A DNA stretch of 64,000 bases, taken from a phage. The stretch is from sequence record PZ445435.1; one strand, given 5' to 3'. The position numbers and the translations under genes are program-made. The notes beneath the pieces were generated by a model. That model was not told the origin of the DNA and searched no databases. It saw only the letters and a list, made by a program, of their open reading frames with translations. Below are positions 55,699 through 62,875 of this stretch, one piece after another (the stretch's first letter is position 1; each line of letters starts with the position of its first letter).

Positions 55699-56723
55699 TA
55701 GTTTAGTGCATTTAGTGCATTGTTCAGTTTAGAACGTTGCTTTGTCAGATTTTGAACCCTTGACTGAGCTTGTTCTAACACCTTTTCAGCTTCTAGCACT
55801 TCATTGGTCGCTTTAACGAGTTCATCATCTACTGCCTTAAGAGACTTCTCAATCGCGTCAGCGTGCCATTTTTCTACAGGTTTAAGACTCGGATTTTCAA
55901 CAGGAAGAAAATTCACTTTATTGAATTTCCATGCATCATTATTACCTGAACTATACATCCAAAATTTAGAATCGTTTGATGAGTAATTGGATAAATTTAA
56001 ATTTAAGTTATCTTGCACTTCTTGCTTTTTCTCTTGCGGGACTTCGTCCTTTCTCAAAAAATCGTATTTAAATGAAACGATCATATCAAGTTCATATGTT
56101 GTCGTATCTAACTTAAATCGTTCAAAACGAGGTAAAATCTTAGATTGAACAGCAGCAACAACATCCATATACTTAAATGCTTCTGTCAACTGCGATTTAA
56201 GGCATTCACAAATTGAAAGAGAATTTTTTGTATTAGGTTTAAAGCTAATTCGTGCAGTTCTATTATTTTCTTTTAACGGTCTTACTTCCATCTGAAGAGT
56301 ATAACCATCAAATTTCAGATTCTTTAAGTTAATATCAGAGCCTTTTAATCGACTAGCAGTAGACAAAATTTGCTTTAATTGTTTACGAAATAGAGCAATA
56401 AATCTCCATTCAATACGATAATGATTTGGATTAAAAAATCCTGTTGATAAATCAACCTTACTCTGACCAACGCCTTGAACAAATAGAGGATTTTTATAAT
56501 CAATAGTTTTACAGAAATCGGTGAGCTGCTCACGAGCAGTCATTTGTGTAATATATCCCGCTTTACTAAAATGACATAACCATTCACTGCTATTCATATA
56601 CTTAAAGTGAATATCACGATTAACTTTATCAGGGTCTAAATTATTTTGGCACAAAAATGTCATAACATTACGGGTATAGCTGGCATTACGAACCATATCT
56701 TCAATTTGAGAACGAGTTTTCAT
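55698..56723 (-). CDS. paralog family member C
   Basis: 341 aa; N-terminus MKTRSQIEDMV, mid-block KYMDVVAAV, C-terminal coiled coil. Confidence 0.6.
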   Translation of the reverse strand: MKTRSQIEDMVRNASYTRNVMTFLCQNNLDPDKVNRDIHFKYMNSSEWLCHFSKAGYITQMTAREQLTDFCKTIDYKNPLFVQGVGQSKVDLSTGFFNPNHYRIEWRFIALFRKQLKQILSTASRLKGSDINLKNLKFDGYTLQMEVRPLKENNRTARISFKPNTKNSLSICECLKSQLTEAFKYMDVVAAVQSKILPRFERFKLDTTTYELDMIVSFKYDFLRKDEVPQEKKQEVQDNLNLNLSNYSSNDSKFWMYSSGNNDAWKFNKVNFLPVENPSLKPVEKWHADAIEKSLKAVDDELVKATNEVLEAEKVLEQAQSRVQNLTKQRSKLNNALNALN

Positions 56724-56731
56724 AGTGTTCC

Positions 56732-57640
56732 TTAAGATTTAAGTAAATCAACAATTTTAATTAATTTTTCACGCTCAGATTTAGCTTTACTACTCAATCC
56801 AGATAGTCTGAAAATTTCATCGTCATACTGTTGAATAGAAATATTCAGCTCTTCAATTTGCTTATTAAAATAATCAATTTGCTCAGAATGTTTTTCATTA
56901 CTGCGAACTGGTACAGGTTTTGTAGGCAATTTAGTTAAACTGGATTCATCCGGGCGATAAATTAAAATGCAATTTGAACCAATCGGGCATTTAGCACCAG
57001 ACACATATTCTAATGTTCCGGCTTCTTTTAAAACTTCAAAAGCTAAACAGAGATGATGCCCCATATTAACATAATCTGTAGAGTGAGCTCTGATGTAATA
57101 ATCATCTCCACGAATACTAAATTTAAAGCATTTAAGGTCTTCTGTATTATTGGTCTTAAAAATCATTTGTTTATCTAGACCTTTAGCTAATCGAGCGCCT
57201 AATGCTAATAATCGGCGTTGATTTTCCCACAAATCCGCAATCATTTGATCGAATGATAATTTCGGCATTAGTCGACCATAAAGGTCATATCCTTTATTAT
57301 AATTGCGAAGGATTTCACTCGCATTAATACGAGACAACGCTCCAATTTTATTAAGGGCTTTCATGATGCGATTAGATAAACCCATTCCAGACCCGTTTGT
57401 TCGTTGTAAATGTTTATCTAATCCAAACCCAATATCAACTTTAAATTTATCTAAAATTTCAGCATGAACATCTCTGTCAATAACATTCAAATCCAAAGTT
57501 GGGTTAAATCTATGAAAAAATTTATCTGGCTCTCCACGACGAAGTACAGTCCATTCATTCAATTTTTTATTAACTAAAGATTTAATTACTGCATTGACAT
57601 TATTAATTACTACTGACATATTTTCCTCACTCAATTTCAA
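56732..57640 (-). CDS. paralog family member D (divergent)
   Basis: 302 aa; C-terminal coiled coil IEELNISIQQYDDEIFRL. Confidence 0.55.
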   Translation of the reverse strand: MKLSEENMSVVINNVNAVIKSLVNKKLNEWTVLRRGEPDKFFHRFNPTLDLNVIDRDVHAEILDKFKVDIGFGLDKHLQRTNGSGMGLSNRIMKALNKIGALSRINASEILRNYNKGYDLYGRLMPKLSFDQMIADLWENQRRLLALGARLAKGLDKQMIFKTNNTEDLKCFKFSIRGDDYYIRAHSTDYVNMGHHLCLAFEVLKEAGTLEYVSGAKCPIGSNCILIYRPDESSLTKLPTKPVPVRSNEKHSEQIDYFNKQIEELNISIQQYDDEIFRLSGLSSKAKSEREKLIKIVDLLKS

Positions 57641-59081: not shown

Positions 59082-60050
59082 TTATTTCAGAAGAGTAACC
59101 TCAGCGATTTCTTCCCAACCGTTTTTGTCGGTCATAATAAAGTCAGCAAGATAAAGAGCAGTACGCAGTGAAACATTGCGTAAACGATTAACATTGACTT
59201 TCATCCATGATAATGCTTTATAAGTTTCTTCATCAGAAAGACCGCGCTTTTGCATCATGTCAGTTGAAAGAATAACATCTTCAACCCTGACCATAATTTC
59301 TTCATTAGTGTGAACACCCAAATCCAAATAAACTGAGCGGGAAACTAATGCTTGTAAATGTGGAGCAAGTTTAGTACCACGATCTAATTCGCGGTCAATA
59401 TCAACGTTTGTGATAAAAACAATCGTTCCTTTAAATTCAAACTCACGCTCAATGCCTTTTTCTTCTAAGTAAGAAGATGCAGTGCTCCAGCAGACTTTAC
59501 GGGTCTCTCCAGTGTCCAGAGCAGCTTTTAGAAGATTAAGAATGTCCATATCAGAGAAAACATCCACATCATCAATCAAAAGGACAGAATTCTCTTCACG
59601 ATTATTCCAAAGCTGTTCATAAAGACCGATACCGGAGATTTTACCGTTAATGCTTTTATATTCAATGTATCCAATATCATTTGCTTTATTTAAAGCTTTA
59701 TCTAAAGAATACGTTTTACCAATACCTGCCGCACCAGAGATAATTAATGAACGAATGTTTCCGTTAATAATACCATTCGTCATCATTCCCATAACATTAA
59801 ATCTTTTATTAATGCGGGTTTTCATATCTTCATACGATTCTTTAACTTCTTCAACTTTTACACCATCATATGAAATGTCTGATTTGTAAACCCAAACACC
59901 GCGACGTTTACCGTCAATTTCAACAAAAACTTTACCATCTCCTTGTGCATCTACCGGAGCATTATCTGGGAACCATTCGCCTAAGAGCTCAAAAGTTCCA
60001 GAGATTTCTTTACCGAAGTAGATACCCTTATTGATAGTTACAGTTTTCAT
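59082..60050 (-). CDS. P-loop NTPase of unknown function
   Basis: Start refined to MKTVTINKGIYFG (322 aa); Walker A GAAGIGKT, Walker B VLLIDDVD. Confidence 0.6.
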   Translation of the reverse strand: MKTVTINKGIYFGKEISGTFELLGEWFPDNAPVDAQGDGKVFVEIDGKRRGVWVYKSDISYDGVKVEEVKESYEDMKTRINKRFNVMGMMTNGIINGNIRSLIISGAAGIGKTYSLDKALNKANDIGYIEYKSINGKISGIGLYEQLWNNREENSVLLIDDVDVFSDMDILNLLKAALDTGETRKVCWSTASSYLEEKGIEREFEFKGTIVFITNVDIDRELDRGTKLAPHLQALVSRSVYLDLGVHTNEEIMVRVEDVILSTDMMQKRGLSDEETYKALSWMKVNVNRLRNVSLRTALYLADFIMTDKNGWEEIAEVTLLK

Positions 60051-60083: not shown

Positions 60084-60114
60084 TATAGTACCATAAAGCT
60101 TTATGCTTGTAAAC
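60084..60114 (-). promoter_or_regulatory. early promoter for the P-loop NTPase gene
   Basis: Repeated element; GTTTACA...TACTATA. Confidence 0.55.
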
Positions 60115-60145
60115 AACTTTGTGAAAAATTTTTGAAATAAAAAAA

Positions 60146-60163
60146 GGGAGCCCGAAGGCTCCC
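60146..60163 (-). terminator. UUCG-loop hairpin after the nucleotidyltransferase gene
   Basis: gggagcc-cgaa-ggctccc. Confidence 0.5.
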
Positions 60164-60165
60164 TA

Positions 60166-61179
60166 TCATTTATAATAACTTCGGTGGTTTTCAAGATAAA
60201 CCTGTTCGAGGAAATTATTCCAAAAGCTCATATCTACTGTTTTAGGCATACCATTCTTAGAAGCTTCAGTAGATGCTGCTTCTACTTGATCGACCACATC
60301 TTCCAAAAACTCTTGAACCGTTTTAAATGGATGTTTACCCAACTTCACGTCGAGAATAAATGGAGCGTCTTGAAGTGGATAAACCAAGTCACCAGTTTTG
60401 TAAATTTCCAATAGTTGAAGTCCACCACGACAAGCATGGCTCAGAGCTTTCCAGTCAATGCCTTCATTGGCTTCGGCCTTTCGAGCGCGTTCACCATATT
60501 CAGCATCTAATTTGTTCAGTGACTGCTTAAGCTCAATAAGAGAAAGCGTTGTCTGATATTTACGACCCAACACTGTGTAAAACGTCTGTGGGCCTGTTTT
60601 CTCATGATTATGGAACACCCATTCACAGAATTCGTTTTCTGGAAGACGATGCTTAATATCTTCAACTTTAGTACGACGCTGCTTAATGGAACCGTCTTCT
60701 TGGTAATCAACCCATTGCTCAGGGATTTGATTAACTACTTTCAATACATCACGTAATGCAGCCAAACGAGAACCCTTGACACCGTATTTAGAAGCTTGCT
60801 TGCGGACATATCCTAAATAGGATTTCATGTTAGTCGTATAAAAACGAGAACGGTTGTCTTGAATAAACTTCCACACATCAGGCAAATCTGATTTAACTAC
60901 TAGCTCAGGTGGAGTGTGAAGCATATCCAATGCTACGGTTTCACCATCTGCTGCTAATTTAAAGAAATATTTAAGACTGTATAGTTCATGGTCAATATCA
61001 TCTTTAGTGTTTTTAGATGATGTATTGTTAGTATTTTTACTCATGTGCTCTTTGACATTTCCGATAAGAATATCGCGAGCAGGAGGAACAAAAATTTCTT
61101 TAAAATCTACATCAGATTCTGGGGTAGAAGTTCCATAAAGATGACTACCAAAATAGCTTTTCATTACTGTTTTCATCAT
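60166..61179 (-). CDS. nucleotidyltransferase-fold protein (Pol-beta superfamily)
   Basis: 337 aa; N-terminal motif YFGSHLYGTSTPESDVDF (GS...SDxD) and downstream VALDMLH. Confidence 0.6.
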   Translation of the reverse strand: MMKTVMKSYFGSHLYGTSTPESDVDFKEIFVPPARDILIGNVKEHMSKNTNNTSSKNTKDDIDHELYSLKYFFKLAADGETVALDMLHTPPELVVKSDLPDVWKFIQDNRSRFYTTNMKSYLGYVRKQASKYGVKGSRLAALRDVLKVVNQIPEQWVDYQEDGSIKQRRTKVEDIKHRLPENEFCEWVFHNHEKTGPQTFYTVLGRKYQTTLSLIELKQSLNKLDAEYGERARKAEANEGIDWKALSHACRGGLQLLEIYKTGDLVYPLQDAPFILDVKLGKHPFKTVQEFLEDVVDQVEAASTEASKNGMPKTVDMSFWNNFLEQVYLENHRSYYK

Positions 61180-61637
61180 TCAGCCTTATATTCAATAACA
61201 GGACATACTTTAGCTTTACGAGCTTTTAAAAATTCGACGATAATCGATTTCTTGGGTTGAATAGGAGGTAAACCTTTATACGCTCTATCAATATTTTCTA
61301 CGTGTAAAGCATAATCCTTTTTCCATTTATAATCTTTATATTTTTCACGCAAATGTGCAGGAATAACAAATGAACCGATAATAAGTAAAACAACCAAAAG
61401 TGCAAGTATAAATGCCGATGGAAGAAGAGTCCATAAACTACCGAAAATAAGCCAACGTTGTAGGCTTTCTGCACAAATAATTGTTAACCCTACGAGTATA
61501 GCACACCCAAAAATAGAAACGAAAAATGTAGGAATGGCAATAGACCAAAAATATGCGCATAATGTCTTAGGTCGTTGCCATTCATCGTTAAACAATTTGA
61601 ATAATTTATAGTGCCAAGAGTTTTCATTAATAATCAT
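61176..61637 (-). CDS. membrane protein coupled to the nucleotidyltransferase
   Basis: 153 aa; two long hydrophobic helices; 4-nt overlap with NTase start. Confidence 0.55.
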   Translation of the reverse strand: MIINENSWHYKLFKLFNDEWQRPKTLCAYFWSIAIPTFFVSIFGCAILVGLTIICAESLQRWLIFGSLWTLLPSAFILALLVVLLIIGSFVIPAHLREKYKDYKWKKDYALHVENIDRAYKGLPPIQPKKSIIVEFLKARKAKVCPVIEYKAE

Positions 61638-61639
61638 AA

Positions 61640-62161
61640 TTATCCTTTCATTGAAGGTGTAATGGTTGTTAAATACTTAATCATAGCTTCAGCTTCTGAT
61701 TTTGATAATGAAATTTCTCCATTGTTTTGACGAATAGAAATAAAATCCGGATGACGGTCACCACCAGCTTTTAAAACACACATATAAGTATCAACTTCAC
61801 CTTCAATATTTGAAATGATTGAAGCAGTTCCACATGAATGTGGTTTTTGATAAATCAATGCAGCTTTTCTTCCACCATTTGACTGTTCATAGGCTTTTAA
61901 TACATCAAACAAATCAGTTCTTTTATCAATAGCTAAAATGTTATTTTCATCTTCAATGTTAAATCCTTCGGATACTTCATAAAGCGTTACCCATAAATCA
62001 CCGATGTCAATAACAGCATTTACTTTTCCACGGCTTTCAAGAGTATGACAAATTTTCTTGATTTCGTCATAACTCATTTTAATAATATCATCTCCTTGAC
62101 TAAGGAAGATGTCATTTTTAAATTCAACACGAATTAAACCACTTTCACTTGAAATAAACAT
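61640..62161 (-). CDS. hypothetical protein (paralog pair, member 1)
   Basis: 173 aa; C-terminus SKSEAEAMIKYLTTITPSMKG. Confidence 0.55.
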   Translation of the reverse strand: MFISSESGLIRVEFKNDIFLSQGDDIIKMSYDEIKKICHTLESRGKVNAVIDIGDLWVTLYEVSEGFNIEDENNILAIDKRTDLFDVLKAYEQSNGGRKAALIYQKPHSCGTASIISNIEGEVDTYMCVLKAGGDRHPDFISIRQNNGEISLSKSEAEAMIKYLTTITPSMKG

Positions 62162-62167
62162 ATTTCC

Positions 62168-62713
62168 TCACTTTGAAATCATAGTTGGAATAACAGAATC
62201 AAGATAAGTCTTTAGTGCAATAGCTTCGTCTTTGGTAAATGTGACAATATGTGCTCGAAAATCATCAATTTGACGAATAGTTAAGACATCTCCATCTTCA
62301 TAACATTTTGATACGTTTAAAACAGTTTCATCATTCTGATTGCAAGCGTTAGTAATAATAGCATTGCAATTTTTAAACCATTTTAAACTATGTTTTCTTT
62401 CATTAGAATAATAAAAATATTTAATCTTATCTATAAAACTATCCCAATGGATAACTGATAAGCATATTGACTCGCTTTCAATATTAAATCCTGGGCATGA
62501 AGAATAAAAATGAATTTTATGCTCATCATTAATGCTTACAATTTTATCAGTATAAGGATTTTCAATTTTGGTTAAATGAATGATTTCACTAGGCGTAAAA
62601 TACAGCATATCGTCTTCTTGTGTCAAACGATACATATTATTTACTTTTTCTATAGCCAATTCACCAAAAAGTGAACTAACTTCTAATACTAATCGTTTCG
62701 CCGCTACCGTCAT
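62168..62713 (-). CDS. hypothetical protein (paralog pair, member 2)
   Basis: 181 aa; C-terminus TKDEAIALKTYLDSVIPTMISK. Confidence 0.55.
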   Translation of the reverse strand: MTVAAKRLVLEVSSLFGELAIEKVNNMYRLTQEDDMLYFTPSEIIHLTKIENPYTDKIVSINDEHKIHFYSSCPGFNIESESICLSVIHWDSFIDKIKYFYYSNERKHSLKWFKNCNAIITNACNQNDETVLNVSKCYEDGDVLTIRQIDDFRAHIVTFTKDEAIALKTYLDSVIPTMISK

Positions 62714-62845
62714 TACATACTCCTCTGAATCATATCAATAATGTTGTTCACCAGATTATAAGTAAACATTGGGTAATTATATTGAATCACCACATACACA
62801 ACAAACAAAACTTTCATTCTCTTCTCCTTGGCAGTTGACAAGATT

Positions 62846-62875
62846 ACTATACCATAACCTTGCCAACTTGTAAAC
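62846..62875 (-). promoter_or_regulatory. early promoter heading the paralog-pair / membrane / NTase operon
   Basis: Minus strand GTTTACA-17-TATAGT. Confidence 0.5.

Follow-up and report, generated by a model that had tools for sequence, protein, structure and literature searches.

The DNA analysed here is a 64,000-nucleotide stretch (the window) of sequence record PZ445435.1, from a phage that is a Tequatrovirus. Within a 2.8-kb region of the window that shares 99.6% DNA identity with phages slur02 and slur04, the minus strand carries five closely spaced genes behind a single early-type promoter, with a single intrinsic terminator at their end (Table 1). They make up the early transcription unit mobD.2-mobD.1-(RB32ORF097c)-(RB32ORF096c)-nrdC.11 of a T-even phage without the homing endonuclease mobD. 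The last gene of the unit encodes NrdC.11, which by sequence belongs to the RlaP (PF10127) branch of the Pol-beta nucleotidyltransferases as a long-form member. An initial annotation of the window had described a four-gene unit. The four open reading frames are present where it placed them, but the 34-residue mobD.2 was overlooked; the unit has five genes, because mobD.2 sits between the promoter and MobD.1. The initial annotation also could not place the unit in the T4 gene set. That view is incorrect, as the nucleotidyltransferase is 97% identical to T4 NrdC.11 over 336 residues, with ten substitutions, and the 181-residue protein is 82% identical to T4 MobD.1. The unit looked foreign to T4 because two of its genes are absent from T4 and the other two are poorly known numbered open reading frames. 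Conservation across T-even genomes had been proposed as a check; at least 80% of the region is covered in 428 phage records.

Table 1. Features of the nrdC.11 transcription unit and its downstream boundary (positions are those of the window).
Feature	Position	Strand	Remarks
T4-early-type sigma-70 promoter	62846..62874	-	TTTACA, 17-nucleotide spacer, TGgTATAGT
mobD.2, 34-residue open reading frame	62713..62817	-	AAGGAG ribosome-binding site; T4 and slur02 have it annotated at this position
MobD.1, 181 residues	62168..62713	-	PUR/Whirly-like predicted fold with three beta-beta-beta-beta-alpha repeats
RB32ORF097c, 173-residue MobD.1 paralog	61640..62161	-	not in T4
RB32ORF096c, 153-residue inner-membrane protein	61176..61637	-	two hydrophobic segments, basic C-terminal tail; not in T4
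NrdC.11, long-form RlaP-family Pol-beta nucleotidyltransferase	60166..61179	-	337 residues, or 336 from the second ATG
Intrinsic terminator	60138..60164	-	8-bp GC-rich stem, UUCG loop, U7 tail
Next early-type promoter, starting the separate nrdC.10 unit (unit boundary)	60085..60113	-	motif match

NrdC.11 is widespread. T4 NrdC.11 (NP_049709, UniProt P39242, annotated 'nucleotidyltransferase') occupies the same position, between the mobD.1 and nrdC.10 sides, and is followed by the same terminator. RefSeq records place the start of the protein one codon later, which gives the 336-residue form. Across the Straboviridae, 1564 phage records contain homologs, with identities as low as 29% (KVP40), and the protein matches the PHROGs family phrog_388, 'nucleotidyltransferase', over its full length (E 3e-138). 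A library of 1.8 billion proteins holds 3502 clusters of homologs (clustered at 50% identity), 830 of them at E ≤1e-30 and mostly full length. NrdC.11 is labelled 'thioredoxin' in many GenBank and RefSeq records, and 'HNH homing endonuclease' in one.

The assignment to RlaP rests on the N-terminal part of the protein. NrdC.11 scores 43.9 bits against PF10127 (cut-off 23, E 3e-11), with a match limited to residues 7-135 and to positions 23-142 of the 249 in the profile. The Pol-beta signature GS-x9-SDVD with a downstream acidic residue, which the initial annotation had recognised, is borne out. G11-S12 is followed by nine residues and then S22-D23-V24-D25, in agreement with the hG[GS]/[DE]h[DE]h pattern of Pol-beta enzymes; the third catalytic carboxylate, D63, lies on the neighbouring strand of a mixed alpha/beta core, and the triad D23, D25 and D63 is thus intact. 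Residues G11, S12, G16, S22, D23, D25, N57, D63, Y132, R231, K244, H248, R251 and P268 are invariant in 61 sequences with identities down to 34%, and D85 is kept in at least 90% of them. The AlphaFold (AF2) model of NrdC.11 has a predicted local distance difference test score of 94.1 and consists of a nucleotidyltransferase core (residues 1-110), a long helix (119-150), a 55-residue beta insert (155-209) and a helical C-terminal domain (214-336), in which the invariant R231, K244, H248 and R251 are located.

Several features set NrdC.11 apart from canonical RlaP. A profile-profile comparison with the canonical short form gave a probability of 92% and E 5e-7, over the N-terminal 118 columns only, and no alignment was obtained between the C-terminal halves. 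Since the C-terminal halves fail to align, NrdC.11 is best described as a distinct long-form branch of RlaP, in agreement with its placement in a separate cluster of the published sequence-similarity network. In that network T4 NrdC.11 belongs to RlaP cluster 5 (PMC12776372), whereas the Pseudomonas enzymes PfRlaP and PaRlaP belong to cluster 1a. Like NrdC.11, both Pseudomonas enzymes have a GS...SDxD...D core and a nucleotidyltransferase domain followed by a helical domain, but only the N-terminal 120-135 residues align. In the crystal structure of PfRlaP the last helix of the C-terminal helical domain packs on the nucleotidyltransferase domain. NrdC.11 is approximately 80 residues longer than canonical RlaP and differs from it by a loop at residues 40-60 and by the beta insert at 155-209. 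A search of the PDB with the NrdC.11 sequence and with the 61-sequence profile found no similar chain.

The initial annotation had raised a role in nucleotide signalling, with CD-NTases among the families to be compared. NrdC.11 as a CD-NTase-, cGAS- or OAS-like signal synthase, or as a sponge or decoy for CBASS, Thoeris or Pycsar, is extremely improbable. The signature GS-x9-SDVD that it shares with such enzymes is the generic one of Pol-beta proteins. No CD-NTase, cGAS or OAS structure was among its matches; neither the combination of fold and PAP/OAS1 C-terminal domain nor a match to a defence or anti-defence profile was found for NrdC.11. NCBIfam and PADLOC gave no match for any of the five proteins of the unit.

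The textbook phage answer to the anticodon nuclease PrrC is the repair of cleaved tRNA by T4 Pnkp and Rnl1. RloC has been proposed to defeat this repair by excision of the wobble nucleotide. According to a paper that cites the work, RlaP was named by Burroughs and Aravind for its linkage to RNA ligases. The distribution of RlaP mirrors that of RNA ligases in jumbo phages, and RlaP was predicted to put back nucleotides that RloC and similar nucleases have taken (Iyer et al. 2021, PMC7824862). A December 2025 preprint (PMC12776372) reported that the two RlaP enzymes assayed, both from Pseudomonas, add one or two nucleoside monophosphates at an RNA 3'-OH, with a preference for Mn2+, and that DNA and protein are not substrates. 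The enzymes use all four nucleoside triphosphates and label rRNA-sized, tRNA-sized and fragment RNAs, favour, on a mimic of cleaved tRNA, the 3' end at the break rather than that of the acceptor, and rescue the aminoacylation of a tRNA that lacks one anticodon-loop nucleotide (PMC12776372).

The gene neighbourhoods of bacterial relatives support an RNA-repair role for the long form specifically. NrdC.11-like long proteins with 33-53% identity were collected from 80 bacterial and archaeal loci, and Pfam domains were counted among 201 same-strand neighbours in 67 of such loci. The neighbours include canonical RlaP (15/201), AAA_33 kinases (5/201), PNKP_ligase (4/201) and two each of RtcB, T4-type RNA ligase (RNA_lig_T4_1), HAD_PNKP, RtcA and Ro60/TROVE proteins. 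The association with RNA-repair genes that characterizes RlaP is therefore found for the bacterial NrdC.11-like genes themselves. Directly 3' of the long form, nine of ten tested loci encode a full-length canonical RlaP (E ~1e-80), often in an overlapping frame, and a hidden Markov model scan of the loci recovered approximately 15-19 such long/short tandems. The short protein of the tandem has 250-280 residues, and its start codon frequently overlaps the stop codon of the long form. Preprint PMC12776372 makes no mention of the tandem. The long and short forms are probably not redundant, because the long form is so often immediately upstream of the short one in bacteria. In the window, the hidden Markov model of the bacterial short form found NrdC.11 alone and no second RlaP. 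Among the neighbouring open reading frames of the 80 loci there were no homologs of the phage membrane protein, MobD.1 or NrdC.10.

These neighbourhoods also bear on the possibility that the target of nucleotidylylation by NrdC.11 is a protein or small molecule: a host factor or toxin might be AMPylated, as HEPN is by MNT, or a metabolite modified, as by ANT, KNTase and Lnu enzymes. The initial annotation had listed MNT/HEPN and AbiEii among the candidate families. The identities involved are 4-16%, the Pfam NTP_transf_2 score is 13.6 bits, below the cut-off of 21, and no Rx4-6H HEPN motif occurs near the conserved residues of the C-terminal domain, so that membership in an AbiEii-like MNT/HEPN system does not hold. 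The assayed RlaP enzymes left proteins unlabelled, and the neighbours in bacteria are RNA-repair genes, not toxin-antitoxin pairs. Such an activity is improbable.

It seems to us an even chance that NrdC.11 restores one or two nucleotides at RNA 3'-OH ends early in infection and thereby complements T4 Pnkp and Rnl1 in the defence against anticodon nucleases that excise nucleotides. Repair of RNA 3' ends is favoured because of the assignment to RlaP (PF10127) and the bacterial gene neighbourhoods. Soon after infection, NrdC.11 would extend broken RNA at its 3'-OH by one or two nucleotides in a template-independent manner. The likeliest targets would be tRNA halves that have lost a nucleotide cut out by a RloC-type host anticodon nuclease, and T4 Pnkp and RNA ligase 1 could then reseal a full-length tRNA. 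The fold, the catalytic residues, the family and the RNA-repair neighbourhoods of relatives are direct observations, from which we infer the substrate, product and biological target of NrdC.11. If NrdC.11 does put the nucleotide back, T-even phages would gain a further layer in the arms race with anticodon nucleases.

Several observations weigh against such a function. The Pfam and profile matches are confined to the N-terminal 120-135 residues, which leaves the C-terminal half of NrdC.11 unaligned, and the beta insert is without counterpart in the description of PfRlaP. The biochemistry is that of the Pseudomonas enzymes only, and T4 NrdC.11 itself is called 'of unknown function' in the preprint (PMC12776372). 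In the phage, neither pseT nor rnlA adjoins nrdC.11, and no ligase or Pnkp gene lies beside it in the window. Furthermore, the nrdC.11-mobD.3 region can be deleted from T4, which remains viable on laboratory hosts. It is also conceivable, though rather unlikely, that NrdC.11 acts on RNA 3' ends for other purposes, such as restoration of the CCA end on trimmed tRNAs or the tailing of host or phage transcripts to alter their stability. The range of RNAs labelled by RlaP, the use of all four nucleoside triphosphates and the fact that the phage locus itself specifies no substrate are consistent with such roles. However, given a mimic of cleaved tRNA, RlaP acts on the 3' end at the break in preference to the acceptor end, and it halts after one or two additions, which makes it ill suited to tailing. 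The locus is real but already catalogued, and the repair hypothesis favoured here for its nucleotidyltransferase, a protein already filed in a described family, is already in print.

The two proteins encoded upstream may also act on nucleic acid. The initial annotation had called the 181- and 173-residue proteins paralogs with a shared C-terminal motif, and this is well founded: they are 29% identical over 176 residues (BLASTP, E 1e-10), both match the Pfam domains T4_y05I_N and T4_y05I_C, and their alignment reveals the common motif IRQ...K.EA.A...YL....P.M near the C-terminus. The 173-residue paralog has relatives in only 12 clusters in a word-indexed search. The predicted model of MobD.1 has repeated beta-beta-beta-beta-alpha units, as expected of a PUR/Whirly-like fold. 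The single-strand binders Pur-alpha, the Whirly proteins (PBF-2, StWhy2) and MRP1/MRP2 have a similar fold, and the model suggests that MobD.1 and its paralog probably bind single-stranded nucleic acid. The identity to these proteins is just 5-13%, the third repeat of MobD.1 is modelled at low confidence, and, unlike them, the MobD.1 family is phage-specific. MobD.1 and other mobD.x open reading frames are labelled 'molybdopterin-guanine dinucleotide biosynthesis protein MobD', an error of name propagation like the mislabelling of NrdC.11. A metagenomic protein of 179 residues is a hybrid, with approximately 125 N-terminal residues of the MobD.1 type and a C-terminus of the 173-residue type; it probably arose by a deletion through recombination between the tandem paralogs, as judged from its sequence.

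A more elaborate proposal joins these proteins to NrdC.11. The long-form RlaP would be mechanistically distinct and, in bacteria, would form a two-enzyme cassette with the downstream canonical RlaP; in T-even phages the place of the partner would be taken by the co-transcribed PUR/Whirly-like MobD.1 proteins, and the unit would serve specifically to counter anticodon nucleases, such as RloC, that excise a nucleotide. MobD.1 proteins might hold or anneal the broken tRNA halves, comparable to MRP1/MRP2 with guide RNA, while the long-form enzyme would put the excised nucleotide back ahead of ligation. As a whole this proposal is a long shot. The bacterial long/short RlaP tandem and the predicted fold of MobD.1 nevertheless sharpen the experimental question, and both are worth keeping, as are the exact breakpoints at which mobD replaces its neighbours.

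The order of genes in T4 is mobD.2, mobD.1, mobD (an HNH homing endonuclease), nrdC.11, terminator and nrdC.10. The flanks of the mobD locus are the same in T4 and in PZ445435.1, but T4 has the free-standing HNH endonuclease where this phage has the genes for the 173- and 153-residue proteins. Homology to T4 ends at position 62146 of the window and restarts at 61187 (window 61187-62146 versus T4 56456-57261). T4 mobD therefore stands exactly in place of the two genes, and the region is a clean example of the replacement of two accessory genes by a homing endonuclease. The two-gene allele (RB32ORF097c/096c) is present in 422 records and mobD in 47, so that the endonuclease-free allele is the commoner one. 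The low divergence of the 47 mobD copies, all with identities of 99% or more, suggests that mobD spread recently.

The 153-residue protein, predicted in the initial annotation to be a two-helix membrane protein, indeed has hydrophobic stretches at approximately residues 25-60 and 62-98, followed by the basic C-terminal tail. It matches phrog_944, 'membrane protein', and is a conserved T-even inner-membrane protein. Its homologs adjoin or lie near nrdC.11 in RB69-like, Klebsiella and Acinetobacter phages, and are not found in T4-type mobD+ phages or in KVP40. In phage T2 (MH751506.1, 53422-53799) the gene is matched over residues 28-153 alone, and two places of the record match, suggesting from the sequence that this copy is truncated or rearranged.

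The initial annotation had further proposed that the nucleotidyltransferase is coupled to this membrane protein. The overlap of the two genes by four nucleotides is real: the nrdC.11 ATG (61179-61177) and the TGA of the membrane-protein gene (61178-61176) share the sequence ATGA. The stop codon of mobD.2 and the ATG of MobD.1 likewise overlap, by one base. However, nrdC.11 is retained in T4 and 46 other records that lack the membrane gene, and an obligatory coupling is not upheld. The unit is a set of variable accessory genes co-transcribed from one promoter, not an obligatory or fixed functional module. The absence of obligatory coupling follows from the mobD replacement in 47 records, from the extra genes in phage wV7 and from the differing numbers of phage records for NrdC.11 (1564), the membrane protein (918) and MobD.1 (728), with a further count of 449. 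In wV7, two small genes (61 and 88 residues) lie between mobD.2 and MobD.1. A T4 variant (OL964745.1, 49712-50056) has residues 1-108 of MobD.1 fused to approximately the last 39 of NrdC.11; the deletion takes out mobD and most of nrdC.11, consistent with the reported dispensability of the region.

An adjacent membrane protein would also be expected if the two genes formed a pair like that of the Hailong defence system, or one directed against it. NrdC.11 would then make template-independent oligo-deoxyadenylate, as HalB does, and so either gate the adjacent membrane protein or keep the host HalA channel closed, allowing the phage to escape Hailong. This is very unlikely. NrdC.11 matches HalB (PDB 9dbh, 217 residues) only at the level of the nucleotidyltransferase core fold, at which KNTase and 3c18 score similarly; the identity is 15%, no sequence-level relationship is apparent, and NrdC.11 is without sequence similarity to any PDB chain. 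PADLOC returned no match for NrdC.11 or for the membrane protein. HalB carries out protein-primed poly-dA synthesis in bacterial defence; by contrast, the phage membrane gene is dispensable for the retention of nrdC.11, as the 47 records without it demonstrate. In bacteria, the homologs of NrdC.11 have RNA-repair neighbours, with no homolog of the membrane protein among the neighbouring open reading frames. Restoration of nucleotides at RNA 3' ends remains the favoured function of NrdC.11.

The signals at the two ends of the unit agree with the initial annotation, which had noted an early promoter at its head and a UUCG hairpin at its close. The promoter is the top-scoring site of the region (10/12, with an upstream TG). 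The window has 21 copies of the T4-early-like motif TTTAC[AT]-N16-18-TAYWNT, every one of them on the minus strand, with the plus strand free of the motif; the mean in shuffled sequence is 5.7 on both strands together. This distribution fits a long leftward early region. Many of the copies have GTGGTA ahead of the -10 element. The terminator, GGGAGCC-UUCG-GGCUCCC followed by U7, has a folding energy of -17.5 kcal/mol (z -3.7), and the same hairpin is annotated as a terminator in wV7. A search of Rfam gave only a sub-threshold L20-leader match, which lies over the terminator and was judged to be due to chance.

Beyond the terminator, nrdC.10 (59082-60050, minus strand) has its own early-type promoter and encodes a 322-residue P-loop/AAA-like protein with weak matches to AAA_14, AAA_22 and nSTAND3. 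Its position 3' of nrdC.11 is conserved in phages as distant as those of Acinetobacter (E 1e-136).

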